Assembly: GCA_049472335.1 (NCBI GenBank)
Contig: JBLIRO010000004.1
Span: forward strand, 14,368 to 78,367
Direction of reading: 5' to 3'
Length of the DNA stretch: 64,000 bases
Origin: a bacterium
Lineage (GTDB): Bacteria; SZUA-182; DTGQ01; JAFGSM01
Shown: positions 37,664 through 56,586 of the stretch, one piece after another
Numbering within the stretch: position 1 is the stretch's first letter
Layout: each line of letters opens with the position of its first letter
Made by a program: the position numbers and the translations under genes
Notes under the pieces: generated by a model
The model's input: only the letters and a program-made list of their open reading frames with translations
The model's database searches: none
What the model was told of the DNA's origin: nothing

Positions 37664-39604
37664 TTACGTATTAGTTTGTAAATTGTCTCTATTGATGTTA
37701 ATAGGTAAATTGATTGTAAAACAAGTCCCTTTATCAATTTCGCTTTCCACTTTTATCTCGCCATGATGATCCTCAATGATGGCATATGCAACATAGAGCC
37801 CCAGTCCGCTTCTTTCTTCATCGGATTTTGTTGTAAAAAATTGTTCGAATATATGAGGGATGTGTTCTTCAGGAATCCCTGTCCCTGTATCGCTGATTTT
37901 TATAGAAATTTTGTCCTGATCGTTCTTTAATCCTTCATTATCTATATCTATAGATTGGGTTCGGATGGAGATAATACCTCCTTCATGCATTGATTCCACG
38001 GCATTGGTGAAGATATTAACAAAGGCCTGGATCAACTCTCTGCTATTCCCCATTATCCGAGATTTTTTTGCAGAGTAATCGCCTTTTATATCTATATTAT
38101 CCATATTGACCTGATATCCGGTGAATAATAAAGACTTGTTGAGAATTTCATGAATATCGATCATGCCCATAGAGTGATCAGAAGGGATGGAATACCAAAG
38201 AAGGTCCTTAACCAATTGACCTATCCTGTCAGCATCCTCTTCAACCTTCGAGAGATTGCCTGTAAGCTCCGATATCCCTATCCTCTCTGTCCTGGTCATA
38301 AGAAGATGTGTATATGTAGACAGAGACGCCAATGGATTGTTGATATCATGGGCCATACTGGCAGCCATAGTTCCAAGGGAAATCATCTTTTGCGATTGGA
38401 TAAACTGTTTTTTAAGTTTTTTGGTCTTGGAAAGCTCCTTGGCAATACCGGAGACTCCGTAAACATTCCCATTAATATCCTTTATTAAGGAAATAGTTAA
38501 ACTGATTGGAATAGGTTCTCCGGACATGCTTATGATTTGCGTCTCGTAATTGCTGATTGATTCACATTTTTTTACCCATTGAAAAAGATTTTGCATCTTC
38601 TTCCTATCCTTTTCCGCAAACAGGAAATCCCATGGCCGGCCGATCGACTCCTGGGAGCTAAATCCGAACATCATCTCCGCGCCTTTATTCCATGTGACGA
38701 CAACACCGTCCAGGTCGCACCCTATGATTGCATCTGTAGAGTTTTCAACCAAATAACTAATATATCCCTGGGCTCGGTTCAGCTCGTCCTTTAAACGGAT
38801 TTTTTGAGTGATGTTTTCCGCGATAATGACAGCTCCAACAGTCTCTTCTTCCTTTTTAATGGGTGAGAATTTATAATTGGCATATATTTCATCACCATCC
38901 GGTTTTTTTGTTTTAAGATGACCTAATTCTGTAACCTCACCATTATGAATCACTGATTTGATCCGTCCCGATACCTTTTCCCATCCCAGGGCAGGTATAA
39001 TATCAAAAAGGTTTGAACCGATCGCTACAGATCCGTCTATGCTCAAAATATTGCTTATCCCGGGATTCCAACTGGTAATTATAAATCCTTTATCTATGGT
39101 AATTATGCCCAATGTGATGCTTTGAAGTATTTTTTCATGAAAGGAGATTAGTTCATGAAATTCTTTGGTTCTATTGGAAAGATTCTTGTTGGCCTCCAAA
39201 AGCTCGTTCTGCATTTGGTTGAATCTTTCTTTAAGTTGTTTATGTTTTATTACCTGATCCACCATCACAAGGATTTCCTTCCCTGTTACAGGCTGAAGAA
39301 GCCTCCCTCCCTCTTCTCCGTTCGAAAAAATACTATCGAATTTGTCTTGATCATTATTGGGTACAAGATGAATAATAGAGGTTTCTGAATAATTTTTGCC
39401 AAGACTTGGAATAAGATCAGGACGATCCTCAATCCATATTCTGCTATCCAAAAGAACCACGTCCTGGGGATTCGAATGCAGTTGTGATTCCATTTCAGAA
39501 AGATTGGAGACCTTTGTTACAAGATAATCATGTTTATAAAGAGCAGTGGCTGACTCTTCAAGCAGTCCTTCATCTTTTATTACTACCAAAATCCTCTCTT
39601 TCAC
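37664..39604 (-). CDS. Sensor histidine kinase with an N-terminal receiver-like domain and two PAS domains
   Basis: H-box MAHDINNPL, N-box FTNAVESM, G-boxes DTGTGIP and GLGLYV. PAS-like repeats in the middle. The N-terminal 120 aa are REC-like. Confidence 0.9.
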   Translation of the reverse strand: MKERILVVIKDEGLLEESATALYKHDYLVTKVSNLSEMESQLHSNPQDVVLLDSRIWIEDRPDLIPSLGKNYSETSIIHLVPNNDQDKFDSIFSNGEEGGRLLQPVTGKEILVMVDQVIKHKQLKERFNQMQNELLEANKNLSNRTKEFHELISFHEKILQSITLGIITIDKGFIITSWNPGISNILSIDGSVAIGSNLFDIIPALGWEKVSGRIKSVIHNGEVTELGHLKTKKPDGDEIYANYKFSPIKKEEETVGAVIIAENITQKIRLKDELNRAQGYISYLVENSTDAIIGCDLDGVVVTWNKGAEMMFGFSSQESIGRPWDFLFAEKDRKKMQNLFQWVKKCESISNYETQIISMSGEPIPISLTISLIKDINGNVYGVSGIAKELSKTKKLKKQFIQSQKMISLGTMAASMAHDINNPLASLSTYTHLLMTRTERIGISELTGNLSKVEEDADRIGQLVKDLLWYSIPSDHSMGMIDIHEILNKSLLFTGYQVNMDNIDIKGDYSAKKSRIMGNSRELIQAFVNIFTNAVESMHEGGIISIRTQSIDIDNEGLKNDQDKISIKISDTGTGIPEEHIPHIFEQFFTTKSDEERSGLGLYVAYAIIEDHHGEIKVESEIDKGTCFTINLPININRDNLQTNT

Positions 39605-39694
39605 TGCCGCCTCCTACACAGATTTATTAATAAAATCATCTTTTTTCTTTGAAATAATGATGGATTCGTTTCATTCGTAAATATACCATTATTA

Positions 39695-40564
39695 TCAAGG
39701 AATAACCTTACTTAAAGGATATTCTACAATCCCTGTCGCACCTGCCCTTTTAAGGGTAGGGATAAGGTCTCTCACTGTCTTTTCATCCATAATTACCTCA
39801 ACATCAAGCCAGTCCGGATCGGTCAGATGCGATATGGTAGGAGTATGCATTGCTGGTAGAATGGATACAATATGGTCCAGGTCTGTTTTTTTTACATTCA
39901 TCTTTAGCCCCACCTTCTGTTCAGCCAATAGAGCGCTTTCCAGCAGACATGCCAAATTCTCCATTTTCCTTCTTTTCCATTCATCCTTCCATGCAACCTT
40001 ATTGGCAATCAGTCTTGTGGTGGATTCCATTATTGTTTCTATGACCCTGAGTTTATTGGCTCTTAAAGAGCTTCCCGTTTCAGTAAGTTCCACTATCGCG
40101 TCGGCAAGATCAGGCGCTTTAACCTCTGTAGCTCCCCATGAAAAGAAGACCTCCGCATTTATTCCTCTTTCCTGCAAATGCTTTTTCGTAACATGGACCA
40201 ATTCAGTCGAGATCCTTTTTCCTTCTAAATCACCGATAACATTTATGGGCGATGTTTCGGGGACAGCCAAAACCCATCTCACCGGTGTTCGGCCGGCCTT
40301 GGCATAACTTAGATTTGCCACTTCCACAACATCGGCTCCCTGTTCCATGACCCAGTCCCAACCGGTTAATCCCACATCAAGGACTCCATTGCCTACATAA
40401 ACTGCCATCTCCTGTGCTCTGATAAGCAATCCTTCCATTTCAGGATCATCAATCACCGGATAATATGATCTTGAATGGACAGTTATATGATAGCCTGCCT
40501 TACGAAACAGATTCAGGGTTGATTCCTGAAGGCTTCCTTTTGGGATACCGATTTTTAATTTCAT
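39695..40564 (-). CDS. hisG: ATP phosphoribosyltransferase (long form)
   Basis: [25 protein letters not shown], the conserved [14 protein letters not shown] block, and a C-terminal regulatory domain. Confidence 0.9.
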
Positions 40565-41577
40565 AGATTGCGTGTCCTCCGTTTCTGATATTTTAATACG
40601 GCTCTGTTATGCTGCCGTAATGTCTCGGAAAATTCGTGTGAGCCATCGTTCCTTGATACGAAATATTTGTAGTTTACATTTGCAGGATAGAGAGCGGCCT
40701 CCAGACAACCAAGACCCGGATTAGCTATCGGACCAATAGGCAGCCCCCTTATTTTATAAGTATTATATGGTGTCAATTTAACAAGGTCCTTTTTGGTAAG
40801 GTTCCCGTCAAAATTTTTAAGACCGTATATCACGCTCGGATCACACTGTAGCCGGATTCTTTCTTTTAAACGTTTGTGAAACACAGCTGAGATCAGAGGC
40901 CTCTCTTCCGGCAGCGCCGTCTCTTTCTCAATAAGAGATGCCAATATAACAATTTCATGCACAGTAAAATCCAGTTCCTTTGCCCTTTCAACGAATTCGG
41001 GCTTGAATATCTTCCAGAAATTCCTGATCATAGTATCGAGGATTCGTTTTTCCGAAATCCCTTTACTAAAGAAGTAGGTCTCCGGAAATAAATAACCTTC
41101 TACTGTAGACCCTTCGATCTTCCAATATTCCAGAATATTTGGGTCTGAACACAGGGTAAGAAAGACCTCTTTATCAGACAAATCCTTTTCCCCAAATAAA
41201 TTGGCTATCTGATAGATATTGAAACCTTCCGGGACAGTTATCTTGTGTTGAACGACACGGCCCTGTTCAAGAATATCAAGTATCTCAAAAGGGGTCATGC
41301 CTGGATTAAGATTATACTCACCTGCCTTAAGAGAGCTTTTTCCCTGGACCATACTCAGAAGATAAAATGCTGTGGCATTACGAATGAGCCCTGCAGATTT
41401 CAAAGATCTGGAAATCGTTTTAATTCCTGAGCCTTCAGGTATATTTACAATCTTTTCAGGTGTATTCAGAGAGACAGGAGTAAAAATCTTATGATAAATT
41501 ATAGTAGCAGATAATAGAAAAAGTGTCAATAAAATAATCAGGGTTAAATCTATTTTCCATATCTTATTTCCTTTCAT
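40561..41577 (-). CDS. mltG: Endolytic murein transglycosylase (YceG family)
   Basis: N-terminal TM helix. YceG motifs [27 protein letters not shown], and YFVS…GSHEFS. Confidence 0.9.
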
Positions 41578-42035
41578 TGAACAGAGTCCAGATAGTTCTG
41601 TAAAATAAGGATTGCAGAAAGCATATCCACCTTCCCCGATCTTTTTTTCCTTGACATACCAGATTCCTTAAGGGCAATATGGGCACTACGGGACGACAAC
41701 CTTTCATCCCATGGGATAAAAGGGCAGTCTGTCCTTGATTTAAGATAATTAATGAATGCTTCGGTTTTTTCTGCCTGGCATCCCAGGCTCCCATCCATAT
41801 TCTTTGGAAGGCCGTAAATGATGCCAGTCACACCATATTTCAAAATAATATCTAAAATTACATTGGTGTCATGTTTTTTGCCCTGTCTTAAAAGGGTGGG
41901 TAATCCCTGGGCAGTTATTCCGAGAGGGTCGCTCATGGCCATCCCTATACGTTTATCTCCAATATCCAAGGCCAGTAGGCGCCCCTTTTTTGATTCCATC
42001 GTTTTTTGAAATAAAGGATCGAGAATCAGATTCAT
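41574..42035 (-). CDS. ruvX: Holliday-junction resolvase-like nuclease RuvX (YqgF)
   Basis: LLALDIGDKRIGMAMSD, GLPKNMDGS, DERLSS. 4-nt overlap with mltG. Confidence 0.9.
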   Translation of the reverse strand: MNLILDPLFQKTMESKKGRLLALDIGDKRIGMAMSDPLGITAQGLPTLLRQGKKHDTNVILDIILKYGVTGIIYGLPKNMDGSLGCQAEKTEAFINYLKSRTDCPFIPWDERLSSRSAHIALKESGMSRKKRSGKVDMLSAILILQNYLDSVQ

Positions 42036-42198
42036 TTATAGATAAATCAATTAACCGACAATATATTACTTCAGCAATGAATCAAAATCAAGAGACCTTT
42101 TACATGGTTTAAACAAATTAAATTTGACTGAGGCTCAATCCATGATATATTCTGTTTGTATCAACAAAGTATTTCGTTTTTTCCTTACACTTTACAAA
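42015..42198. repeat. Copy A (contiguous) of the ruvX 5' end plus the ruvX-ahb intergenic region
   Basis: 42015-42067 matches 50601-50653 (53 nt, 1 mismatch). 42100-42198 matches 51503-51600 (about 90% by eye, one indel). Confidence 0.9.
42124..42151 (+). promoter_or_regulatory. Sigma70-type promoter, orphaned duplicate of the ahb/hemL promoter
   Basis: TTGACT, 16-nt spacer, TATATT. Identical to the copy at 51527-51554. Confidence 0.45.
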
Positions 42199-42205
42199 TT
42201 TGGAA

Positions 42206-42365
42206 GTTTGTCTGGCAGGGTTGATAGTCAAATCGTTTCCTTCAATAGAAAGGGTGAGAATGGATTATCTCTTAACTCAAATAAAATACTTCAGGATCAC
42301 GGCTCTGGAAAAATTTCCATCAGGGAAAAGGGCAGGGCTTTATGATTTGACATTTCGTCCTGTAT
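42206..42365 (+). pseudogene. Relic fragments of hemL (58 nt) and the GT2 glycosyltransferase gene (100 nt), fused by deletions
   Basis: 42206-42263 matches hemL 52390-52447 (4 mismatches). 42266-42365 matches GT2 53922-54021 (about 10 mismatches). The track ORF 42124..42345 is a chimera of these pieces. Confidence 0.85.
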
Positions 42366-42797
42366 TAGTGTGAAAATTACAATTTTTTTTGAGTAAGCCC
42401 TTCAGCAAAAAATGTCAAGTCAGTCTTTTAATGAATTTATACGACTTTGTTAAGTTTAAAATTGACAAATTTATTTGGATTGTTAAAATTATAATTGAAA
42501 AAAATTTTTATTTACTCAAAAAGATTTGAAATATTAGAAAATTAATATTTCGGAATTTACTACTATCATTATATATATTATTATAATATAATAAAGCTAG
42601 TAAAATTTCTAAATAGAAAAAGTGATTTTAGGAAAACCGTGATTTCTTAATTCTATTCCTGCATATTTTTCATATTTCAAGCGAAAGCGAACATCAAGTT
42701 AAAAGCTTTCTAAAATAAGGTAAGTTCAATATTAAAGGTTTTAAGCAGAACATCTTTTATCTTTTTTATAATATAACATTCTTGCTGCCCTATATTT

Positions 42798-42847
42798 TCA
42801 AGTATTCTGTGTCAGATTATGTATATGATGAGACATAGGATACTTGA
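42798..42847. promoter_or_regulatory. Imperfect inverted repeat upstream of the multihaem cytochrome gene
   Basis: TCAAGTATTCTGTGTC … GACATAGGATACTTGA (14 of 16 paired, 18-nt spacer), 85-135 nt upstream of the ATG at 42932. Confidence 0.25.
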
Positions 42848-42931
42848 ACTAGAATAGAAAGGGGGTGCTTATTATGCTTTAAGATCTATATGAAAATATA
42901 CACTGTAGTTTTTTAAATAAGGAGGACTAAG

Positions 42932-45900
42932 ATGAAATATAAGTATGTTTTCATTATCTTAACTGTCCTAATATTCGCTTGCCTTTCCATATCTGTTTAT
43001 GCACGCACTATAGAGACGCCTATATTTATGCCTGGGACCCAGCCTATGGAAGTTATGAATATCACAGGTTCGACTGAATGCAGGGTGTGTCATGGAGGAT
43101 ATGACCGGAGCATAGAATCTACCTTTAACTGGGAAGGGATCATGATGGCCCAGGCATCAAAAGATCCTCTAATGTATGCTGCCCTTGCTATAGCCAATCA
43201 GGATATTCCCGATGCCGGGGATTTATGCCTCCGATGTCATGTCCCGAATGGATGGCTAAGAGGTAATTCTGTTCCAACAGATGGCTCCAAGTTTACCCCT
43301 CAGGAGTTGGAGGGCATACAGTGTGATTTTTGTCACAGGGTGGTTAATCCTCTTAGTGAGGAAGGAAAGGCCCTTGTAGAGCCCAATGTGGACAAACTCG
43401 AAAGTGGGAAATATGTTATCTCCCCAGAGAAGATTGTTAGAGGCCCCTATACAACCATTATTGCGGTCCATGATAGCACTGAGTCAGATTTTCACAAGAC
43501 AGGGGATTTCTGTGGTGTATGTCATGACGTTACCAACCCCATTTTTATAAATCCCGTTACAGGCCAGCCCGCCGCTGTTGAGCGGACCTATAGTGAATGG
43601 AAAAACAGTGATTTTGCCAAGATCGGTGCCAAAGGGAGCTGCCAGAATTGCCATATGCCTCCAAAATGGGGAACTGCAAGTGATCCTAAAAGATTTGATA
43701 CTTCTTTTCAGCAGGTCATTTTCAGGGATTATTTGAATATCCATGAATTTGTCGGAGGAAACACATTTGCCCAGCAGATTCTCCCTATGTTCTGGAATTA
43801 TGATAAAGAAGGGCTTGAGGCCTTGCAGAATACCAGGGACAAGGCCTATATCCAGCTCAGGAAGGCAGCTACAATCGACCTGGACTTTTATAATGAGCCC
43901 GCGGGGAAAAGGCTTAAGGTCACAGTTACAAACCATACCGGTCACAAACTACCAACAGGTTATCCTGAGGGGAGGCGGATGTGGATCAATGTAAAGGCAT
44001 TTGATGCTGCTGGTGATCAGATATTTGAGTCTGGCAAGTATGACTTTGACACCGGGGAGCTTATCAAGGACAAGCAAATAAAGGTATATGAGATCAAACC
44101 CGGAGTTTCTCCTAAACAGGCTGAACGCTTTGGCTTGACACCAGGGCCAACCTTTCATTTTATCTTGAATGATATGGTTTACAAAGACAACAGGATTCCC
44201 CCACGAGGTTTCACCAATGCAGCCTTCCAAGCCATAGGTGCTGAGGTTGTGGATTATCAGTATGAGGATGGTCAGTTCTGGGATGAGACTTACTACTCTA
44301 TTCCTGAGACAACAGCAAAGGTTGAGGTCGCACTGTACTATCAGACCTCTTCAAAGGAGTATATTGAGTTTCTGAGGGCTGAGAATAAGACCAATGATCT
44401 GGGTGAGGCCCTTTATATGGCCTGGGAAATGACCACAAAATCCATGCCTGTGGATACAATGGGAGATAATAAGGTTGCTGGAAATAGCTGTAGGGCATGT
44501 CATGGAGATCTCAAGAAGATGACAGATCTGGGATATCCACAGTTCTATTTCGACTGGACACAGGTCAACGCCGAGACCGGTATGTCAGCCAGTTGTGAGG
44601 ACTGCCATCTGGGTAGTCCCAAGGATTTTACACTTGAAGGCGCCCATAAGGGACTCCTGGGGCTTTTGGTGATGAAAGGGATATATAGGGATGTGGTGAG
44701 AAGAAAAGATGTTGCCGGTGATGATTATGGGAAGGTTAGATCCCTTAAATCTATCAGAGAAAGTAACAGCGATGACCCCCGATATCGGCTGAGGGTTCAA
44801 AGCCCTTTCCATATGTTGCTTTGGCATGATAAAAACCAGGAGACTTCTGCATGGAATCCGGAGATCGCAATGAAGACCTGTGGCCGGTGCCATGCCCGAC
44901 AGGTTGCAGAGTTCGTAACAACCGAGATGGGGCTGAATCTGACCATGTCCCAGTATGATCCATGGATTGTTCCTCCCCAGCCCGAAGAACCTGGCACCCA
45001 TTTAAAGATTGCCCCGCAAAGCTGCGGGCTCTGGACAGAACTTGCTGTCAAACCAGACAATGAAACATTCACAGAGACCAACCGGGAGCTCTATAACAGC
45101 ACAAGCACCAAGATTACCCCTCAATTTGAGGACCCCGTTTATCCGGAGACCTCAAATGATCCATTGACAAAGCTTCAGTCCTTGGCAAACACCAAGAACT
45201 GTATCAAATGCCACCCGGGCTGCCTTGACTGCCACTTTGTACCTTTTGCTGAAGATATCCCTGGAAGGATGGGGATCAAAAAACCTGCCGGGACACATAC
45301 ATTCACCCAGAGACCACTCCTATCAAACTGCATGGGTGGAGGAAGGGGTCAATTCTGCCATGGAGGCCCCATTGACCGCAGACGGGGAGATGGCTATCTC
45401 AAGGGGGGCTTTGCCCACGTACCACGTGTTGAAAACAGGACCGAGGATACAAAGGCATATCTGGATACACCAGACATACATTACAATGGGGATAAAAATC
45501 CGTCCAATGCAATATGTGTAGACTGCCATGGCCCCTTGCCCGGTAGAAAGGACTATGGATTAATAGGTGGAGACCCGGATGCTATCCATGGGAATATGGA
45601 TCGCAGTCCAGAACCGGAACGTTGTGCGGTTTGCCACCCAAAACAAGTAGCTGGCCATCATATAGGCAACCACAAAAACCTTACCTGTGGTGCATGCCAT
45701 ACAGTCAAGGTTGCAGGCTATGCATTCAACTTCTGGGCGCCAGGGACACGGTTTGGCATCACACCAAATCCCCTGGACCGTCATGAAAGGTATGCTGTAA
45801 ATGCCATGAATCCGGTACTTTTGAAGGATGAGGATGGCGTGTGGACACCATATCATGTAGTGCCTCATATCTCCACGCATATCGATCCAGACTATCTTGA

Positions 45901-46390
45901 TGTAAATGACTATCTCTCACCTCGCATCCTATGGAGGAATCAGCCCGATATCGGGGTATACCGTCAGCACAGGGCAAATGATTGCGTGGCTGTTACCGGA
46001 TCGTACTTTGGACCTGACTATGGAAGGGATGAGGGGCAGGTGATGGTCTGGCTGAACATCGACAAGATGGCCCATTCAATAACCCACAAGGAAAGTGATA
46101 TACCGCCCAGGACATGCAAAAACTGTCATGCTTCCGAAGGAAGCCAAAGAATCAAGGTCAGCTTTGCCTGGAATGCTGATCCTGCACTTGTATACGAGGG
46201 CCTCTATAAGGGGAGCTTCGAGATCGTTGCAGATGAGAATGGCCTCAGGATTGAGAATCTGGATGGCTATAAGCAGGATGGAACACCATCGAATGCCTTT
46301 GACCCAATGAAAGGAAAATGGTCGGTTCCTGGTAATTACATTATACCCCAGATATCCGGACCTGCAACGGGTCATCCGAGTAGTCAGTAA
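42932..46390 (+). CDS. Periplasmic multihaem c-type cytochrome (1152 aa, 14 CxxCH motifs)
   Basis: AAGGAGG RBS. Signal peptide ending SVYA. CxxCH motifs: CRVCH, CLRCH, CDFCH, CGVCH, CQNCH, CRACH, CEDCH, CGRCH, CIKCH, CLDCH, CVDCH, CAVCH, CGACH, CKNCH. Confidence 0.9.
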   Translation: MKYKYVFIILTVLIFACLSISVYARTIETPIFMPGTQPMEVMNITGSTECRVCHGGYDRSIESTFNWEGIMMAQASKDPLMYAALAIANQDIPDAGDLCLRCHVPNGWLRGNSVPTDGSKFTPQELEGIQCDFCHRVVNPLSEEGKALVEPNVDKLESGKYVISPEKIVRGPYTTIIAVHDSTESDFHKTGDFCGVCHDVTNPIFINPVTGQPAAVERTYSEWKNSDFAKIGAKGSCQNCHMPPKWGTASDPKRFDTSFQQVIFRDYLNIHEFVGGNTFAQQILPMFWNYDKEGLEALQNTRDKAYIQLRKAATIDLDFYNEPAGKRLKVTVTNHTGHKLPTGYPEGRRMWINVKAFDAAGDQIFESGKYDFDTGELIKDKQIKVYEIKPGVSPKQAERFGLTPGPTFHFILNDMVYKDNRIPPRGFTNAAFQAIGAEVVDYQYEDGQFWDETYYSIPETTAKVEVALYYQTSSKEYIEFLRAENKTNDLGEALYMAWEMTTKSMPVDTMGDNKVAGNSCRACHGDLKKMTDLGYPQFYFDWTQVNAETGMSASCEDCHLGSPKDFTLEGAHKGLLGLLVMKGIYRDVVRRKDVAGDDYGKVRSLKSIRESNSDDPRYRLRVQSPFHMLLWHDKNQETSAWNPEIAMKTCGRCHARQVAEFVTTEMGLNLTMSQYDPWIVPPQPEEPGTHLKIAPQSCGLWTELAVKPDNETFTETNRELYNSTSTKITPQFEDPVYPETSNDPLTKLQSLANTKNCIKCHPGCLDCHFVPFAEDIPGRMGIKKPAGTHTFTQRPLLSNCMGGGRGQFCHGGPIDRRRGDGYLKGGFAHVPRVENRTEDTKAYLDTPDIHYNGDKNPSNAICVDCHGPLPGRKDYGLIGGDPDAIHGNMDRSPEPERCAVCHPKQVAGHHIGNHKNLTCGACHTVKVAGYAFNFWAPGTRFGITPNPLDRHERYAVNAMNPVLLKDEDGVWTPYHVVPHISTHIDPDYLDVNDYLSPRILWRNQPDIGVYRQHRANDCVAVTGSYFGPDYGRDEGQVMVWLNIDKMAHSITHKESDIPPRTCKNCHASEGSQRIKVSFAWNADPALVYEGLYKGSFEIVADENGLRIENLDGYKQDGTPSNAFDPMKGKWSVPGNYIIPQISGPATGHPSSQ

Positions 46391-46529
46391 GATGAAGAGG
46401 GTTTCCTGGGACCTTGAAGGCCCAGGAAACCCTCTTTCTCCGTTATTGAATCATGAAAGATCATCTTTCTGTTTGTAATGAAAACCTCTTTGTATTTTTA
46501 TGATTTTTCCATGAGGAGGAGTTAGAAAA

Positions 46530-47085
46530 ATGAAAAAGATGTTTATCATTGGGATATATTTAACAGTAGTTATTGGCTTGATTCTTTTCATTTAAATCCC
46601 TTGCACAAAATGGAGAACCGTGTCCTGAAGGATTGGTGTCCGGGATGACAATCGATGAAGAGTTTGATCCGGGTTCACAAGAAATAACGCAATGTATTAC
46701 AAAGCGAAAGAAGGTTAAGGTGGTTTATCAGATTAATCAGTTATGCAGAGACAGTTCATGTACCAAACCATATGCAATTGGAAATATCAATAACGCAATT
46801 GATGATTATGAGATAACCCATGGTATGAAGCGCGGTAAAGACTATGAAATCGTTGCTATCGTGCACAGTGGTGGCGCATTGCTAGTGATAAACAATGATG
46901 CTGAAACACCCTATACGGAGAGCAATCCTTTCCAGGCAGATATGGAGGATTTAATCAGTAAGGGAGTTAAGGTCTTTTTTTATCAAAATACTGCAAGGGC
47001 AAAGGGTATGGTTACCGCACTTATAGGATCGTTATTGACCTTGCTATTGTTCTTCTTTAGAAATGGGATTATATGCAAGGAATAG
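46530..47085 (+). pseudogene. DsrE/DsrF-like (COG1416-type) small periplasmic protein gene with a frameshift after the signal peptide
   Basis: GGAGG plus ATG at 46530 encodes MKKMFIIGIYLTVVIGLILFI, then a stop at 46593. The rest (SFKSLAQNGEPCPEG…KVKVVYQIN…IVAIVHSGGALLV…GVKVFFYQNTARAKGM) continues in another frame. The family call is tentative. Confidence 0.4.
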
Positions 47086-47196
47086 AATAGCGTGGCCCGT
47101 TAATCAAATATTAAGAAGGAGGAGTCTGAATGAAAGGTTAATGATAGGCATTTCGGTTTAATGGATCAGAAAAAGATCATATAGAGGAGCAAAATC

Positions 47197-50076
47197 ATGG
47201 AAACATATTATACCCGCCAAACCTTCTGTTATTATACTAAGAAATATATGATTATAAGATTATTTTTGATCAGTATGTTGATTTTTTCCCTCTTATGCCT
47301 TTCAAAAATGTGTATCCCGGAAAAAGCCATGGCTGCATCCGAGGGATCCTATACACTTTTTGAATCAGGGCAAGTCCGGCCATTGGCCCTGTCTCCGGAT
47401 GGTAAAACACTCTTTGCAGTAAATACTCCGGATAATCGTTTAGAGGTCTTCAAGGTCACCAGGAATGGTTTATGTCGCCGTGGATCTGTACCTGTCGGGC
47501 TAGAACCTGTCGCAGTTGCAGCTCGCACCAATGATGAGATCTGGGTAGTCAACCACCTCTCAGACAGTGTAAGCATAGTGAATATAAGCAGGCTCGGATT
47601 TATGAGGGTAGTATGTACACTGCTCGTGGGTGACGAACCGAGAGACATTGTATTTGCGGGACCAAAAAGAAGCCGTGCCTTTATTACTTGTACACACCGT
47701 GGACAGAATGCCCCTTTTGATCCACAACTCACCACACCCGGCATTGGACGTGCAGATGTCTGGGTGTTTGATGTCAATGATCTTGGATCGGGTCTCGGCG
47801 GCAAGCCTCTTAGTATAATCAATCTGTTTACTGATACACCTCGCGCACTCGCTGTTTCACCTGACGGGAGCCGCGTGTATGCAGCAGGTTTTAAGACAGG
47901 CAACCAAACCACGACTATTGCTGAGGAAGTAGTTACCGCAAATGGAGGCCTACCCGAACCAACAACCAATTATGAAGGTATAGAGCAGCCCACAACGGGC
48001 CTTATTGTTAAATTTAATGGTAAGCACTGGGTTGATGAGCTCGGGAGAGAATGGGATGAATTCGTAAAATTTTCATTACCCGACAAGGATGTGTTTGTCA
48101 TTGATGCAATGGTGGATCCTCCAAAGCAAATTCCCGGAGAAGAAGGATTTTATGCAGGTGTAGGCACCGTTCTTTTTAACATGGTTGTGAATCCCTGCAA
48201 TGGGAATGTGTATGTTGCCAATACCGATGCACAGAATGAAAACCGCTTCGAAGGACCAGGTATTTTTGCTGGACACTCCGTGCGTGGACATCTTGCTGAA
48301 AGTCGCATCACTATATTGGGAAATGGCAAGGTTAAACCTAGTCACCTTAATAAACATATTGATTATGAAAGTTGTTGCGATCCTATTCCCAATGATGAAA
48401 ACCGAAAAAGTCTTGCCTTCCCAATGGGTATGGCAGTTTCTCGTAATGGAAAAACACTCTATGTTACAGCTTTTGGATCCAGTAAAGTGGGAATGTTTGA
48501 TACGGCGAAGCTAGAGGATGATACCTTTGAACCTGATGAATCCAATCAGATTGATGTATCAGGCGGTGGGCCGAGCGGTCTTGTCCTTGACGAGTGCCGC
48601 AGTCGTCTATATGTGCTCACGCGTTTTGATAATTCAATCTCTATAATTGATACAAGGTCAAATGAAGAAAAAGCCCATATATCAATGTATAATCCAGAGC
48701 CAGAAACCATTGTGCGTGGACGTCCTTTTCTTTACGACGCATCTCACACCTCGAGTCATGGAGACTCGGCATGTGCAAGTTGTCATGTTTTTGGTGATTT
48801 CGATGGCTTGGCATGGGATCTTGGTGATCCTGATGGTGATGAGATAAACAATCCTGGCCCTTTTGCTATTGTTCCATCAGAAGTGAACTACCCGGAGCCG
48901 TATAATATGAACTTTCGTCCTATGAAAGGCCCCATGACCACCCAGAGCCTGAGGGGACTGGCGAATCATGGACCGATGCATTGGCGTGGTGATCGAACCG
49001 GTGGCAATGATGCGCCGAGTGAGCAACCGGACAGCGGAACCTTTGATGAAGAAGCGGCGTTTAATAAGTTCAATATTGCATTTTTAAAACTAAATGGCAG
49101 ACATGCAGAGCTCCCAGAGGAGGAGATGCAAGCGTTTACCGACTTTGCTCTACAAATTACATATCCACCGAATCCTATTCGCAATCTCGATAACTCACTA
49201 ACTCCTATTCAGCAGGCAGGCCATGATATATTTTTTAATGGCCCGATTGTGGATACTAAATTTCGTTGTGGCGGGTGTCACATTGTTGATCCAGAAGCTA
49301 ATGCCGAGTATGGCGTCAAAAAACCGGGATTTTTTAGCACTAAGGGGCTTAATCTATTTATATTTTTGCCTCAGACCTTTAAGATCCCAAATTTGCGTAA
49401 TGTGTACCAGCAAATCGGAAAGTTTGGCATGCCAGAGACGAATACATTTCCTGCCTATTTCAGTGAGAGCGACAATAGATTTATGGGGGATCAGATCCGT
49501 GGTTTCGGGGTTCTCCATGACGGGAGCGTTGATACCGTTTTTCGCTTCTTGAATCTAGTCGTTTTTACACCAAGGGAGCCAGATACATTTTGGCCGGGTG
49601 ATCCTGGTAATCATCCGGGCCTTACCATTGAATACCCAGAGGGATTAGAAATGCGCAGGCAACTTGAACAGTTTATATTCGCCTTTCCCACTAACCTGGC
49701 ACCTATAGTAGGGCAGCAGGTAACACTTACCCGCAAGAATCAGAGGCAAGTTGCATCACGTATCGATCTGATGATAGAACGTGCCGAAGTCGGTGAGTGT
49801 GATCTTGTTGCTAAAAGGGGCCAATGGAGTGGCTACTTATATGTTGGAAATGGCAAATTTCGGGATAATCTAAACGGCTGCCTTATAAAGGATAAAACTC
49901 TACGCACACTTGCCCGTTCGTGTTTCGGTGAGGTTACATACACCTGTGTGCCACCTGGTTCAGGTGTAAGGATCGGGCTTGATCGTGACGAGGATGGTTG
50001 CTTTGATCGTCGCGAACTTCTCTGTGGCAGCGATCCGACGGACCCGATGAGTACATGTCATATGGGAAAGGATTAA
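47197..50076 (+). CDS. Secreted beta-propeller (YncE/YVTN-like) protein fused to a dihaem cytochrome c peroxidase-like domain
   Basis: GAGGAG RBS and a signal-like segment. Repeats of the type [23 protein letters not shown] and [14 protein letters not shown]. Two CxxCH motifs ([21 protein letters not shown]). C-terminal [22 protein letters not shown] is Ca-binding and TSP3-like. Confidence 0.8.
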
Positions 50077-50099
50077 TATAAGGGGAGAGGATATTTATT

Positions 50100-50190
50100 G
50101 GACTATCCACTTATGCTAATTTCTTGCGAAGCTCCAAACCGACAAGGTTGAAGACTGCTCTTCTGGCGGAGCTTCGCTAGTGGATAGTCC
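50100..50190. other. 91-nt compound hairpin element downstream of the propeller gene
   Basis: Outer stem GGACTATCCAC/GTGGATAGTCC (50100-50110 with 50180-50190). Inner stem GCGAAGCTCC/GGAGCTTCGC (50126-50135 with 50168-50177). No trailing T-tract. Confidence 0.5.
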
Positions 50191-50239
50191 AATTTCATAT
50201 CAAGGATTTAATGTACCTTTATACACCATAACCATAAAC

Positions 50240-50600
50240 TGGATATCCGCTATCCCATCCTGAATAAACATAGGATTTGTAAGCACCCCGGCCTACCTAT
50301 CTTGGCGTGTACAGGCTCAGGAAAAACAAGAGGTATAACCTATCGTATATGCTATTTAATTCATGAATGTGGTGTTTCTCAATATTTGATTTTAGCTGTT
50401 ACTTTTACAAATAAAGCAGCAAAAAGATGAAAAATCGAGTCAAAAACCTTGTAGGGAGTACTATTAAAAAAAATGGATCTGCACATTTTACTCTTCCTGT
50501 GTTCAAATATTGAGAAATGAAATCCGTCACTTAGATCTACCAAGGAGTTTTGTAATCTTTGATGAAGATAACCAATTGAGGTTTATGAAAAGATACCTAT
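50240..50600 (+). pseudogene. UvrD/Rep/PcrA-family helicase N-terminal fragment
   Basis: My own translation: …[57 protein letters not shown], then a stop. A shifted frame then reads WICTFYSSCVQILRNE…FVIFDEDNQLRFMKRYL. No start codon. Cut off at 50600 by the repeat copy. Confidence 0.8.
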
Positions 50601-50653
50601 AGGATCGAGAATCAGATTCATTTATAGATAAATCAACTAACCGACAATATATT
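50601..50653. repeat. Copy B, part 1: duplicate of the first 21 nt of ruvX plus 32 nt upstream
   Basis: 52 of 53 positions identical to 42015-42067. Confidence 0.9.
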
Positions 50654-51499
50654 CAGAACTCCTGATCTGCTGGATTTTGATTTGACACCAAATCGTAAAC
50701 CAGACGCAAACAGGTGCCTGGAAAAATCGTTTCGGATTCATTCAGAACTTCACATAATTTTTGAACATACCGGTTATTGCGGAAATTTGCCATATTGTGA
50801 ATCTTAACCTTTAATATCCCCTTTTCCTCATCCGGTTCTATATCTGCGTCTGTGAGAAAAATTTGGCGCACCAGTGCCCTTGCTTCATCCTTTTTGAGAA
50901 TATAATCTCTCAGAATATTTACTATTGCGGTTTCTGCTCGATAGGCTATCATTTTGATGGTGTCAATGAATTGTTTTTCGCTCCTTTTTAGATTCTTAAA
51001 CTATTCGGTTTCTGGTAATTCCGAAAAGGATATATGCTTTTGTGTTTTTTTCCTTATACTCTGCACGCTTTCGAGACAGCTTGGCATTTTTGGATCTGAT
51101 TTGCCTTTCAAACTCCCTGTATCTGGGATTGACGACCTTAATGGTTTCATCCATTGTCTCTATCTGATAATCAATAAGTCTATCAATTCCATAGTGTTCC
51201 ATCATATACTTAAAGAAGTTTTCTTGAGACCATCTGGAGAACATCTTGCCGGCGATGTAGGTAGCGTCTTCATGGGCATATTTTGGATAGGTGTATCAGA
51301 CAATACGCTTTTCCCACATTTGTTTGAAAAATATTGGGCTATAGCCTTCCCGGTCAAACACAATACCAAAACGAAACAGGTAGGGGTGCGCTCCCAGTTC
51401 CTCTTGCGTTGGTTGTTTCGGAACCTTCTCAAGCAGTTCTGGTATTATCTTCTCATGCAAAACCGCTAGAAGGCCCGTGTTCACCGTTTCGGTTATCAC
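50653..51499 (-). mobile_element. Decayed DDE transposase gene remnant (IS4-superfamily-like), lacking its N-terminus and IS ends
   Basis: The minus-strand pieces join into one reading: …GIVFDREGYSPIFFKQMWEKRIV, an in-frame TGA, YTYPKYAHEDATYIAGKMFSRWSQENFFKYMMEHYGIDRL (RW-x2-E-x6-K type motif), a frameshift, then …IKMIAYRAETAIVNILRDY…FPGTCLRLVYDLVS. No terminal inverted repeats are visible. Confidence 0.75.
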
Positions 51500-51502
51500 A
51501 AA

Positions 51503-51600
51503 TTACATGGTTTAAACAAATTAAATTTGACTGAGGCTCAATCCATGATATATTCTGTTTGTGCTAACAAAATATTTTGTTTTTCCTTACACTTTACAAA
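51503..51600. repeat. Copy B, part 2 of the ruvX-ahb intergenic region (functional leader of the ahb/hemL operon)
   Basis: Matches 42100-42198. Confidence 0.9.
51527..51554 (+). promoter_or_regulatory. Sigma70-type promoter of the ahb-hemL operon
   Basis: TTGACT (51527-51532), 16-nt spacer, TATATT (51549-51554), about 60 nt upstream of the ATG at 51614. Confidence 0.5.
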
Positions 51601-51613
51601 GGATTCTTCAAGA

Positions 51614-52084
51614 ATGCCAAAACTAACAAAAAAAGATAAAGAGTTGATTCGTTATATACAGAATGATTTACCCTATGATAACAGGCCTTTTTTGGTGATA
51701 GCAGAGAAGTTGGGCTGGAAAGAAGGCGAAGTTTTGCAAAGGATTAAGGAGTGGATCGATCAGGGAGTGATTAAAAGATTCGGTGCCCTGGTTAAGCACC
51801 AGAATCTGGGCTTCAGGGGAAATGCCATGGTGGCGTGGTCTGTTCCTCATTCAGATGTGGAGATAACAGGAAAACATATGGCAAATTATCTTTTTATAAG
51901 TCATTGTTATGAAAGACCTGCCGGGCCGGATTGGCCGTATAACATATACACCATGATTCATGCTTTGGATAAGAAAGAGCTGGAATCCTTTGTTCATAGA
52001 GTTGCCAGAGACACGGGTATTGAGGAGTATCGGATACTATATACGGTTAAGGAATGGAAAAAGAAAAGTATGGAATATATATGA
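51614..52084 (+). CDS. Siroheme decarboxylase subunit (AhbA/AhbB, NirD/L-like, Lrp/AsnC fold)
   Basis: MPKLTKKDKELIRYIQNDLPYDNRPFLVIAEKLGWKEGEVLQRIKEWIDQGVIKRFGALV…GNAMVAW is the typical family pattern. Adjacent to hemL. The track start at 51527 lies in the duplicated leader. Confidence 0.6.
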   Translation: MPKLTKKDKELIRYIQNDLPYDNRPFLVIAEKLGWKEGEVLQRIKEWIDQGVIKRFGALVKHQNLGFRGNAMVAWSVPHSDVEITGKHMANYLFISHCYERPAGPDWPYNIYTMIHALDKKELESFVHRVARDTGIEEYRILYTVKEWKKKSMEYI

Positions 52085-52110
52085 TGTCTCAATAATCAGG
52101 GAGGAGCGAG

Positions 52111-53397
52111 ATGTTTGAAAGGTCACAAGAGTTGTGGAAAGAAGCGAACAATTTTTTGATCGGAGGGGTAAACAGCCCTGTCAGGGCTTTTAAGGCGGTT
52201 GGCGGCTCACCGATCTTTATAAATAGCGCGAAAGGTCCTCTGATATATGATGTGGACGGACAAAAATATTATGATTATGTAGGTTCCTGGGGGCCGATGA
52301 TCCTTGGGCATGCCCATCCGGATATAATCAAGGCCATTCAGGAAACCATGTCACAAGGCACGAGTTTCGGTGCACCCACACAGTTGGAGGTTCGTCTGGC
52401 AGAGTTGATAGTGAAATCGGTTCCTTCAATAGAAAGGGTGAGAATGGTCAATTCCGGGACGGAAGCAACCATGAGTGCCATTCGTCTGGCCAGGGGATAT
52501 ACAGGGAGGGAAAAAATTGTAAAGTTTGCAGGCTGCTATCATGGACATGTCGATAGTCTTCTGGTAAAGGCCGGGTCCGGTGCCACTACCCTTGGAATGC
52601 CTGATAGCAAAGGTGTTCCTCTTGCATTGGCTCAGGAAACAATTACCCTTCCATTTAATGATATAGGTATTTTTAAAAAGGTACTGCAAAATTCTGCGAG
52701 ACAGATAGCAGCGGTTATCCTGGAGCCTGTTGTGGGTAATATGGGTGTGGTGCCACCTGAAAAAGGCTATCTGGAGGAAATAAGGGAGTTAACGGAACGT
52801 TTTGATATACTGCTGATCTTTGATGAAGTTATGACCGGATTCCGCCTTGCACTTGGAGGGGCTCAGCAGCTTTTTGGCATAGCTCCGGATCTTACATGCC
52901 TTGGTAAGATTATCGGTGGAGGCCTGCCGGTTGGCGCTTTTGGAGGTAAAAAGGAGATCATGGAATACCTCGCTCCGGTTGGCCCGGTTTATCAGGCTGG
53001 AACACTTTCCGGAAATCCCATTGCAATGGCGGCTGGAATAAAATCCCTGGAACTGTTACAAAAAAAGGATACATACAGGCAATTAGAGGCAAAAGGTATG
53101 AAACTAGAAACAGGTATCCGGGAGGCGGCAAAAGATGCAAAACAGGATATCCAGGTTCAACGAGTAGGTTCAATGCTTTGTCCATTCTTTACTTCACAAA
53201 GGGTAATAGATTATGAGACGGCAAAAAGAAGTGACACAAAACTTTATGCCCGTTTTTTCTGGGCACTTATTGAACTGGGTGTATATGTTCCTCCGTCTCA
53301 GTTTGAGGCACATTTTATATCGCTCGCCCATGATGATGAAGCCCTTGACAACACAATTTTGGCCATCAATAAGGCCCTGAAGTCAATTAAGATATGA
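52111..53397 (+). CDS. hemL: Glutamate-1-semialdehyde 2,1-aminomutase
   Basis: [54 protein letters not shown] (PLP-binding Lys). Confidence 0.95.
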
Positions 53398-54173
53398 TCC
53401 GAGACACACTGCCTATCTCTGTTTCAATAATAACACTTAATGAGGAGAGAAATATCGGGAATTGCCTGATGAGCGTCAATTTTTGCCGGGAAAAGATAGT
53501 GGTGGATTCCAATAGTAGTGACAGAACCAGAGAAATTGCCAAAGAGATGGGGGCACAGGTTTATGTAAGACCTTTTGAAGGCCACTGGCAGCAAAAACAG
53601 TGGGCCTTGGAAAGATGTACAAATGAATGGGTTTTATGTCTGGACGCAGATGAACGTGTAACATCTACATTTAAGGATTTCCTTTACAATCTGGACCTTC
53701 GCAAATCCTTGATTGATGGTTATGAAATAAGACGAAGGCATTTTTTCATGGGGCGCAAAATGGGTCATTCGTCGCTTTATCCGGATTATAAGTTAAGACT
53801 TGTAAGGAAGGAGAGGTCTCGATGGGGAGGAGTAAATCCCCATGACAAACTGATAGTTACAGGCAAAACCAGGAAACTGCCTTATGAGATAACCCATTAT
53901 GCCTGGCTGGATTTCCAGGACTATCTTTTGACCCAAATAAAATATTCCAGGATCACGGCTCAGGAAAAATTTCGATCAGGGAAAAGGGCAAGGCTTTACG
54001 ATTTGACATTTCGTCCTGTATACACCTTCCTTTATAGATATTTTATAAGGCTCGGAATACTTGACGGTTTTCCAGGTTTCATTATTTCTATGGGGGGGGC
54101 GTTTGCTTGTTTTGCAAAGTATACGTTTCTTAAGGAGTTGGAAAATAAAAATAAAGAAAATTTACTTAAATAA
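53394..54173 (+). CDS. Family 2 glycosyltransferase (LPS core, KdtX/WaaE-like)
   Basis: [34 protein letters not shown] overlap with hemL. Confidence 0.8.
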
Positions 54174-54323
54174 TAGTCGATCGACAAATATCAAGAAATG
54201 GTTTCATTAATTAGATGTCACCCTGATGGATTTCTTGATTTGATAGAAGGTTTATGATAATTTCTGGATTGTGATTAAGGTGCAAGAACTTAAATAGAAT
54301 AAACATATAATTATGGTGATAAT

Positions 54324-55430
54324 ATGCCTATACCTATGGTTGATTTAAAGGCTGAATATAACAGCCTGAAAAAGGAAATAGATAAAAAGATAAAGAAGGT
54401 CCTTAATTCGGGTTATTTTATTCTGGGGCCTGAAGTCGAGTCTCTGGAAAAGGATATAGCCAAATACTGCAATACAAAATTTTCAGTTGGGGTGGCTTCC
54501 GGAACGGAAGCCCTGCATTTGGCTCTGATTGCCTGCGGTGTAGGTAAGGGAGATGAAGTGATTACCACATCGTTTACATTCATTGCCACAGCAGAGGTTG
54601 TATCTCATCTGGGTGCTATGCCGGTTTTTGTTGATATAAATCAAAATAATTTCAATATTGACACTAAACTCATTGCTTCCAAAATAACCAAAAGAACAAA
54701 GGCCATTATTCCAGTTCATCTCTATGGACAGGCATCGGACATGGATGCGATTATTGATATCGCAAGAGAAAATGGATTAATGGTTATTGAGGATTGTGCC
54801 CAGGCCTTCGGGGCCGAATATAAAAACAGGAAAGTAGGCTCAATAGGAGATGTAGGATGCTTTAGTTTTTATCCTGCAAAAAATCTAGGTTGTTACGGGG
54901 ATGGAGGAATGGTTGTTACGTCTAACAAGGATATCTATCAAAAGGTCAAATTGTTGAGACAGCATGGAGCCGAAGAGCAATATAACCATAAGGTTTTGGG
55001 ATTCAATAGCCGGTTGGATGAATTACAGGCGGCCATATTGGGAGTCAAGCTTAAATACCTCGATGAATGGAATACTATCAGGCGCGAGAGGGCTGAGCTT
55101 TATAATAAGTATCTGTCTGATAAAGACATCATCCTTCCTGTTGAGGAGCCTTACAATCACCATGTATATAATCAATATACAATCCGTATGAAAAACCGGG
55201 ACAAGATAAGGGAAGGATTGCAAAGGAAAAAAATAGCCTCTGCGGTCCATTATCCTATCCCCCTTCATCAACAGCCTATTTATAAAAATCTAAATTGCGG
55301 GGAGGGCGGGCTGGCAGTCAGTGAACGTATCAGCAAAGAGGTACTTTCCCTTCCCATATCCCCTTATATCAATCCGGAACAGATCAAAGAGGTTTCTGAT
55401 TGTCTGATTGAATTAATTGAAATGAGCTGA
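54324..55430 (+). CDS. DegT/DnrJ/EryC1/StrS-family sugar aminotransferase
   Basis: FILGPEV, SGTEALHLAL, FSFYPAKNLG (PLP-binding Lys), GFNSRLDELQAAIL. Confidence 0.9.
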   Translation: MPIPMVDLKAEYNSLKKEIDKKIKKVLNSGYFILGPEVESLEKDIAKYCNTKFSVGVASGTEALHLALIACGVGKGDEVITTSFTFIATAEVVSHLGAMPVFVDINQNNFNIDTKLIASKITKRTKAIIPVHLYGQASDMDAIIDIARENGLMVIEDCAQAFGAEYKNRKVGSIGDVGCFSFYPAKNLGCYGDGGMVVTSNKDIYQKVKLLRQHGAEEQYNHKVLGFNSRLDELQAAILGVKLKYLDEWNTIRRERAELYNKYLSDKDIILPVEEPYNHHVYNQYTIRMKNRDKIREGLQRKKIASAVHYPIPLHQQPIYKNLNCGEGGLAVSERISKEVLSLPISPYINPEQIKEVSDCLIELIEMS

Positions 55431-55440
55431 ATTTCCATAT

Positions 55441-56586
55441 ATGAAGATATTGCTTGTAACAGGAGAAGCCTCGGGTGATCTGCATGGATCACGTTTGATT
55501 CATGAGATAAAAAAGAATAATCCGGATATAGAATTTTTTGCCGTGGGAGGTGAAAGTATAAGATCGGAAGGGGCAAACATACTTTTTGATTGTCAACGCC
55601 TTGGTGTTGTGGGATTGGTCGAAATCTTCGCTCATCTGACTACAATACTGGGTTGTTTCCGTCTTGTTAAAAATTTTCTAAAGTCGCAAAAACCCGATAT
55701 CCTCATATTGATAGATTATCCTGATTTTAATCTTAGACTCGCTAAGGTGGCGAAAAAGCTCGGTATAAAGGTTCTCTATTATATTAGCCCTCAGATTTGG
55801 GCATGGAGGAGGAATAGGATAAAATTTATCTCCAGGTGGGTGGATAAGATACTGGTAATTTTTCCGTTTGAGGTACCTTTTTATAAAAGCGGGGGGGTTG
55901 ATGCCGAGTTTGTGGGGCATCCACTTCTTGATTCAATCTCTCCGAAGATAAGTCAGGAATCTTTTAAGGTTAAGTTTGGTTTTAAAAGGGGCGAGAGAGT
56001 GATTGCCCTAATGCCTGGAAGCCGTAAAGGTGAGGTTTCGCGAATATTGCCGGTAATGCTTGAAGGGGCCAAAAAACTCATGGAAAACCACCACCAAAAC
56101 TGGCGTTTTGCCCTTATCCTAGCATCTACTATTGATCGATCGATAATCGATCCCATTATAAAAAACTATAAAGATCTTTTTTCGCTCTCAATTATTCAGG
56201 GCTTTACCTATGAAACACTAAAATCGGCAGAACTGGCCTTTGTGGCCTCCGGCACTGCGACATTAGAGGCCGCTGTTATCGGGACACCGATGGTAATTCT
56301 CTATAAATTGGCATGGCCGACTTATCTGATAGGGAAGTTATTGATAAAAATACCTGCTATTGGTTTAGTAAATATTGTTGCAGAGGAAAAGATTGCTCCT
56401 GAATTGATTCAGACTGATGCAAATAGTCAGAAGCTGGCAATTGAAGCCGAGAGAGTTTTGACTGATCCTGAATATAGAAAAATTATTGAGCAGGGATTGT
56501 ACAAGGTAAGGAAGACACTTGGAAAACCCGGCGCAACTGTCAGGGCCGCTACCGCGGTGATGGATTTTTTAAAAGAAAGTGCCTAA
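55441..56586 (+). CDS. lpxB: Lipid-A-disaccharide synthase
   Basis: ILLVTGEASGDLHGSRLI, IDYPDFNLRLAK, YISPQIWAWR, SGTATLEAA. Confidence 0.9.
   Translation: MKILLVTGEASGDLHGSRLIHEIKKNNPDIEFFAVGGESIRSEGANILFDCQRLGVVGLVEIFAHLTTILGCFRLVKNFLKSQKPDILILIDYPDFNLRLAKVAKKLGIKVLYYISPQIWAWRRNRIKFISRWVDKILVIFPFEVPFYKSGGVDAEFVGHPLLDSISPKISQESFKVKFGFKRGERVIALMPGSRKGEVSRILPVMLEGAKKLMENHHQNWRFALILASTIDRSIIDPIIKNYKDLFSLSIIQGFTYETLKSAELAFVASGTATLEAAVIGTPMVILYKLAWPTYLIGKLLIKIPAIGLVNIVAEEKIAPELIQTDANSQKLAIEAERVLTDPEYRKIIEQGLYKVRKTLGKPGATVRAATAVMDFLKESA

Follow-up and report, generated by a model that had tools for sequence, protein, structure and literature searches.

A cytochrome island between ruvX and ahbB, without an integrase and flanked by a decayed direct duplication of its target

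How did a segment with a 14-haem cytochrome gene come to lie between ruvX and ahbB, which face each other without it in related genomes, and why is the region between these two genes found at both of its borders? The locus lies in a stretch of 64,000 nucleotides (nt) of contig JBLIRO010000004.1 (positions 14,368 to 78,367, forward strand; GenBank assembly GCA_049472335.1), hereafter the window, whose own numbering is used throughout. The host genome (G000) is a metagenome-assembled genome (MAG) of 149 contigs and 88% completeness, and the junctions are known from its assembled contig. The island is real, well delimited and free of an integrase, and it is in our reading an ordinary scar of homology-assisted acquisition. 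As to its course, we lean towards a homology-assisted integration of foreign cargo with a target duplication of about 2.6 kb, followed by decay.

The borders were defined by self-comparison, that is, by a repeat search and BLASTN of 41401-54600 against the whole 4.98-Mb genome. Four direct repeats were obtained (E 6e-18, 8e-35, 2e-18 and 3e-33 from left to right in copy A), which are collinear, share one orientation and together bracket a segment of 8.2 kb, 42366-50597. Further copies of them were not found by BLASTN elsewhere in the genome. The repeats and the gene relics near them are arranged as follows, GT2 denoting a family-2 glycosyltransferase gene:

42012..42198, unstranded: intergenic copy A, contiguous and seamless with ruvX in the self-comparison
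42194..42263, plus strand: internal hemL fragment (hemL nt 268-337), 70 nt, 90% identical to 52378-52447
42262..42365, plus strand: internal GT2 fragment (GT2 nt 525-628), 104 nt, 90% identical to 53918-54021; homology stops at 42365
50598..50653, unstranded: intergenic copy B, ruvX-proximal part, 56 nt, 96% identical to 42012-42067
50654..51502, minus strand: dead transposase fragment of 849 nt, Pfam Transposase_29 positions ~184-562, in three frames with internal stops
51503..51613, unstranded: intergenic copy B, ahb-proximal part; repeat to 51600 (99 nt, 94% identical to 42100-42198), promoter-like site at 51527-51554

An initial annotation of this DNA had proposed that two diverged copies of the ruvX-ahb junction bracket the island, and every match behind that proposal was reproduced. 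Some of its figures had to be adjusted. The gene fragments of copy A are present and in order, with lengths of 70 nt for hemL and 104 nt for GT2 instead of 58 and 100 nt, and the divergence between the copies, estimated there at 7-10%, is 10% in the gene pieces and 4-6% in the intergenic parts.

Within copy A, the intergenic region is joined to hemL nt 268 inside ACA(A/C)A with a microhomology of 3-5 nt, and hemL nt 337 is joined to GT2 nt 525 at GG with one of 2 nt. Relative to the full ahb-hemL-GT2 stretch, about 0.78 kb and about 1.47 kb are missing, and these ordered pieces meeting at microhomologies bear out the earlier view of a copy reduced as by two deletions. The GT2 homology ends at 42365 (GT2 nt 628), and an AT-rich tract begins at 42366. 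At the opposite border a UvrD fragment stops at 50597, and intergenic homology begins at TA(T/A)AGG. The uvrD orthologues of G000 and of its closest relative G004 read (C/T)AAAGAA at this position and the intergenic region reads TAAAGG; from these orthologues, the donor's own sequence not being in hand, we infer a microhomology of about 5 nt (TAAAG). The outer junctions (ruvX/copy A and copy B/ahbB) match the arrangement in G004 and are ancestral, and the inner junctions (42365/42366 and 50597/50598) are new breakpoints. The insertion was thus accompanied by a direct duplication of the target, which extends from the ruvX-proximal intergenic end to GT2 nt 628 and measures about 2.6 kb on copy B minus the transposase.

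In relatives the site lacks the island. Four genomes of the same genus (G001 to G004) show histidine kinase-hisG-mltG-ruvX facing ahb-hemL-GT2-degT-lpxB, free of the island. The spacing between ruvX and ahb is about 0.5 kb in G001 and G002, and in G003 a nagB-like (glucosamine-6-phosphate deaminase) gene lies between them (G003:C181, 8455-9234). In G004 (hemL 91.8% identical at the nt level to that of the host), whose two contigs overlap by 77 nt, the sole extra DNA is a small inverted-repeat element, a 174-nt miniature inverted-repeat transposable element (MITE). In G005, from another genus of the family, about 2.3 kb of a single contig separate hisG from hemL, too little to accommodate an island. 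The synteny comparison called for in the initial annotation is in accordance with an insertion, as the flanking order is kept without the island in all five genomes. What has been added at the site differs among three members of the genus, and the ruvX-ahb junction is, judging from these sequences, evidently variable within it. According to Pfam and NCBIfam, the flanks of the island encode a histidine kinase, HisG, YceG/MltG and RuvX on the minus strand and AhbB, HemL, the family-2 glycosyltransferase, DegT and LpxB on the plus strand; even the closest named homologues of LpxB, from Thermodesulfobacteriota MAGs, reach only about 49% identity. The genes next to the repeats are:

41574..41999, minus strand: ruvX (Holliday junction resolvase-like), Pfam RuvX E 5e-39; longest open reading frame (ORF) to 42035
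51614..54173, plus strand: ahbB (siroheme decarboxylase beta), hemL and GT2, intact, the ancestral right flank, followed by degT and lpxB

In the course that we favour, the incoming DNA would already have carried a stretch of the chromosome, acquired when it lay beside this locus in a very close relative. Two routes of entry can be envisaged: one homologous (Campbell-type) crossover that integrated a circle, or uptake of a linear piece that was anchored by homology at one end and joined through the TAAAG microhomology at the other (homology-facilitated illegitimate recombination). Homologues of ComEC and DprA are present in the host, as they are in 10-11 of 14 control genomes. The redundant upstream copy would then have lost 0.78 kb and 1.47 kb at the microhomologies of 3-5 and 2 nt and drifted to 90% identity. 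Later an insertion sequence (IS) would have landed in copy B and would itself have been truncated.

The origin of the cargo was assessed by comparison with relatives, above all with G006 (bacterium isolate MF1_201910_bin_226), a MAG from another family of the same order. The island contains, with lengths of proteins in amino acids (aa):

42366..42931, unstranded: AT-rich tract, 24% GC, with a promoter-like site at 42462-42489 (11/12 matches, plus strand)
42932..46390, plus strand: 1152-aa cytochrome, 14 CXXCH motifs, signal peptide (motif count, homology to G006)
46395..46436, unstranded: near-perfect hairpin directly after the cytochrome stop (self inverted match, 93% over 43 nt)
46633..47085, plus strand: DsrE-like ORF (Pfam DsrE, E 4e-5)
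47197..50076, plus strand: 959-aa beta-propeller protein, two CXXCH motifs, 84% aa identical to a G006 protein
50100..50190, unstranded: hairpin element (self-comparison and relatives' genomes)
50293..50597, plus strand: internal UvrD/PcrA fragment, interrupted by two stops and a frameshift; corresponds to aa 44-147 in the 757-aa frame of the host

In a comparison that covered 41 relatives and 13 genomes of the order, and 185,579 species representatives by a pattern scan, the propeller gene (84% aa, 83% nt identity) occurred in G006 only, and a DNA search with 46400-50600 in G001-G004 gave no match except for their own uvrD genes. The ends of the cytochrome gene likewise found their match in G006 alone, where a cytochrome gene agrees with the window at 80-86% nt identity over 42818-43383, 43828-44415 and 46196-46393. 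Core proteins of host and G006 are more distant, with 64% identity for HemL and 71% for HisG. With 80-86% nt identity to another family, set against core proteins at 64-71%, the cargo is foreign and was acquired horizontally. Its composition is atypical in part: in GC as well as in tetranucleotide distance the cytochrome gene reaches the 95th percentile of the genome, and the AT-rich tract has an extreme composition; the propeller gene lies at the 83rd percentile and the island as a whole at the 32nd. The initial annotation had weighed an old segmental duplication against import with flanking DNA. Its view is supported in that the island is present on the contig, is absent from the site in five relatives and carries foreign cargo; the duplicated flank could have come about in either way.

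The cytochrome gene itself is a mosaic, because its ends match the G006 gene and its centre matches paralogues at only 67-69%. Identity to G006:C26 is 80-85% in the N-terminal part and over the last 65 aa; the gene there (G006:C26:21865-23092) is shorter, has one in-frame TGA and lacks 43384-43827 and 44416-46195. Residues 515-1150 are 67-69% aa identical to paralogues on G000:C76 (two tandem copies), G003:C146 and G006:C62. For the AT-rich tract no homologue was found, except for the part from 42818 on, which shares homology with the DNA that precedes the cytochrome gene in G006. The DsrE-like product, taken for a pseudogene in the initial annotation, is called on independent contigs as 146 aa with its start at 46645. 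A DsrE-like gene (44% aa identity) also adjoins the cytochrome paralogue in G003:C146 (6442-6807 and 8773-10635), so the cytochrome/DsrE pairing recurs outside the island. The propeller protein family is large and conserved, with more than 60% identity in many phyla, for instance in Gammaproteobacteria and Myxococcota. A conserved cytochrome-DsrE-propeller operon was considered and rejected, since in two other lineages the propeller gene occurs by itself among unrelated neighbours; the island is an assortment of cargo rather than such an operon. Directly downstream of the G006 propeller gene lies a 139-aa fragment of a tyrosine recombinase (phage integrase; G006:C101, 3990-4409), which suggests a mobile context for this gene there too. 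The core of the hairpin element (about 50123-50176, ~55 nt) recurs with 80-86% identity on G000:C63 and G000:C64 and three times in G006, and thus belongs to a small repeat family common to two families of the order. Searches for mobility functions were negative: no tRNA was found in 38000-56000, Rfam gave no match, Pfam gave no integrase domain in any ORF tested, and PLSDB gave neither a DNA match for the island nor a protein match for the transposase that would indicate a plasmid origin.

The last piece of cargo before the right border carries information of its own. The UvrD fragment is 74-75% nt identical to the uvrD genes of G000 and G004, and its divergence from them at codon positions 1/2/3 is 0.18/0.16-0.20/0.41-0.46, compared with 0.04/0.04/0.22 between the two genes themselves. 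A recent copy of the host gene is ruled out by these values. Third-position divergence of 0.41-0.46 against 0.22 points to a different, more distant lineage, and the fragment therefore stems from a uvrD that was functional in a more remote member of the genus, and decayed later. Foreign uvrD at one end of the acquired DNA and near-self hemL and GT2 at the other suggest a passage of the donor DNA through more than one related host, in each of which it picked up flanking sequence.

The island recurs in Logan contigs, assembled independently of the MAG. Contigs from DRR851354 (8047 nt), DRR851349, DRR851379, DRR851362 and SRR29850981 cover 42484-50530 in whole or in part, with a single mismatch in 21.7 kb, and in the DRR8513xx runs, which belong to a second study, the island is 100% identical over 8 kb (DRR851354 contig). 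The hisG and degT flanks are on record only in SRR29850981 and SRR29850973, in contigs of 1.4-2.3 kb with 99.6-100% identity, and for the DRR8513xx runs there is no record of HisG or DegT products identical to the window's. Either the host core is fragmented there by strain variation, or the island lies in another context. The flanks show 9-10 mismatches in 7.1 kb, clustered at contig ends; the difference from the island was not used as evidence.

These contigs bear on the possibility that the locus was created by the assembly, through a mis-join at the exact 60-nt repeat of the two intergenic copies, which would have fused an island-free chromosome with another molecule of about 9.4 kb (a circle, or DNA of another strain), or as a chimera of strains. 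We consider this improbable. It is true that 60 nt, the longest exact repeat, exceeds the top k-mer of some assemblers, that the genome is an incomplete MAG in many contigs, that no independent contig crosses a junction, and that island contigs come mainly from DRR runs and flank contigs only from SRR runs. On the other hand, island and flanks occur together in SRR29850981, which argues against a chimera across studies, and the island is more than 50 kb from either end of its 118-kb contig. The bin holds neither an empty-site contig nor a second copy, and the repeats carry distinguishing mismatches within read length. Collapse of a repeat cannot create the deletion junctions of copy A, and a 9.4-kb unit without a replication or recombination gene is implausible as a replicon.

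When copy A arose can be estimated from its divergence. In 174 nt of gene pieces, 13 sites are unique to copy A, 12 to G004 and 2 to copy B, with 2 at which all differ, and copy A joins the path between B and G004 about 14% of the way from B. This pattern places copy A on the host's own branch, after its divergence from G004, so that its source was this lineage or a very close strain, nearer than G004. The differences between A and B are distributed over the codon positions as 4/4/9, with 8 synonymous and 8 non-synonymous codons (few sites), and much of the divergence of copy A presumably arose while it was non-functional.

The same data can be read as an in-place rearrangement without a donor that carried homology. 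A tandem duplication of about 2.6 kb could have captured foreign DNA, or serial template switching could have run through intergenic DNA, 70 nt of hemL, 104 nt of GT2 and a foreign template before returning to the intergenic start, so that copy A would at no time have comprised the complete genes. Its branching on the own lineage with only 2 B-unique sites fits this well, as do the non-synonymous half of the changed codons, as if the copy had never been functional after the event, and the short, ordered and co-oriented pieces, with 2-5 nt of microhomology at each examinable junction. However, an in-place event does not account for the uvrD piece, from another lineage of the same genus, at the end of the foreign DNA, and it leaves unexplained the fully identical island in runs of the second study for which identical HisG and DegT are not on record. 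Serial switches over 2.4 kb plus an 8 kb foreign template would also be unusual. We regard this course as possible but rather doubtful.

One part of the repeat has not diverged at all. The 60-nt block at 42100-42159 (51503-51562 in copy B) has the same sequence in both copies and in G004, although adjacent sequence differs by 6-10%; at 7.5% divergence the chance of no change in 60 nt is about 0.01. Inside the block lies the best promoter-like site of the intergenic region, TTGACT-16-TATATT at 42124-42151 on the plus strand. Copy B precedes ahbB, and copy A lies upstream of ruvX and points into the island. The block is probably under selection in both copies. A bolder reading makes the unit of about 9.4 kb between the 60-nt blocks (42160-51562) a cassette that is mobilised by recombination, anchored by the conserved ahb promoter region and moving among strains or species. 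Hints in this direction are the unchanged block, the identical island in two studies and the missing record of HisG and DegT where the island assembles best. Such a cassette would always land behind a promoter of haem biosynthesis and couple the expression of the 14-haem cytochrome to haem supply. We think it quite unlikely.

Copy B is interrupted by the transposase fragment, in agreement with the initial annotation: the 849 nt match the Pfam family and stand in place of 32 nt (42068-42099) that are kept in copy A and in G004. Delivery of the island by an element bearing this transposase, as a composite transposon or an IS-mediated cointegrate, is nevertheless very improbable. The location of the fragment within copy B would speak for it, as would the insertion site of the G004 MITE, which coincides with the left border of copy B at the same pentanucleotide. 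Yet only a single fragment is present, with frameshifts, without recognisable ends and lacking its N-terminal third; it has neither a second copy nor an intact relative in G000, none was found in the genus, and related copies occur in another family of the order. It lies inside the repeat, away from the island borders, and transposition duplicates a few nt, not 190 nt plus pieces of genes. A tie between the transposase and the insertion of the island was rejected for want of ends and of an intact relative in the genome.

The MITE-like element in G004 (174-178 nt; G004:C83 start, G004:C30 end) occupies a site matching 42012-42018 of the window. Its inverted ends, GGCTCGCCCAAAAATAA and TTATTTTTGAGCGAGCC, are 15-17 nt long, and the target duplication is CTAAA or CTAAAGG. 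Members of the family with 70-79% identity are present in G000 (contigs C87, C37, C28, C122 and C86), and no remnants of it were found within the island. A fragile or preferred target site may be shared at the left border of copy B. The element also separates the upstream ATG of ruvX from the next one at 41999. The Pfam RuvX domain starts at residue 19 of the long ruvX ORF, and RuvX of relatives aligns only from residues 6-17 of that ORF onward. Domain start, alignment and element together indicate that the true start of ruvX is most likely the ATG at 41999, 13 nt outside the repeat, so that the repeat from 42012 on would be wholly non-coding. The first 21 nt of ruvX, placed inside the repeat by the initial annotation, would then lie upstream of the gene.

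Weighed as a whole, a homology-assisted integration with target duplication still has several points against it. No integrase, att site or tRNA was found at the island, and the model requires a donor with the island beside GT2, which is inferred and not observed. The codon pattern of copy A against copy B fits neither pure neutral decay nor pure functional divergence, and the tetranucleotide distance of the whole island is unremarkable. No independent Logan contig crosses a junction: the longest ends 118 nt (left) and 67 nt (right) inside the borders, junction-spanning contigs are not on record via RuvX (153, 141 aa), AhbB (156 aa), HemL or the 99-aa transposase ORF, and exact scans of metagenome contigs for the UvrD/intergenic junction and the 60-nt block gave no match.

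The island documents the spread of multihaem cytochrome genes between families of an uncultured lineage. It also offers a natural example of foreign DNA that enters with a long target duplication instead of via an integrase; no new mechanism and no long-standing question is opened by it. For the annotation, the start of ruvX should be moved to 41999 and the hemL, GT2, UvrD and transposase pieces marked as relics.

Among known systems, integration by a single Campbell-type crossover is seen in integrated suicide plasmids, F-prime and specialised-transducing derivatives. Similar to these, direct repeats of chromosomal homology flank the insert, the outer junctions are ancestral and the inner ones new, and one inner junction lies at an arbitrary point in a gene (GT2 nt 628), as after aberrant excision. 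In contrast, no replicon, integrase or att site is seen in the island, one repeat has decayed to 350 nt, and the donor state would have to be reconstructed. Classical genomic islands share with it the cargo absent from the relatives' site, the direct repeats, the remnant of a mobile element and the partly atypical composition. They differ in that tRNA, integrase and short att repeats are missing here and the flanking repeats are a long target duplication.

Homology-facilitated illegitimate recombination in natural transformation, described by de Vries and Wackernagel 2002 and by Meier and Wackernagel 2003 (both cited in PMC6382021, which summarises the process), combines a homologous anchor on one side with a microhomology of 3-10 nt on the other. 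The TAAAG proposed for the UvrD/intergenic join falls within this range; described cases usually delete or replace recipient DNA, whereas here 2.6 kb would have been duplicated. Template switching likewise yields short, ordered and co-oriented pieces of nearby genes with microhomologies of 2-5 nt. Here, however, it would need a foreign template of 8 kb, and two ordinary deletions in a full duplicate give the same pattern.

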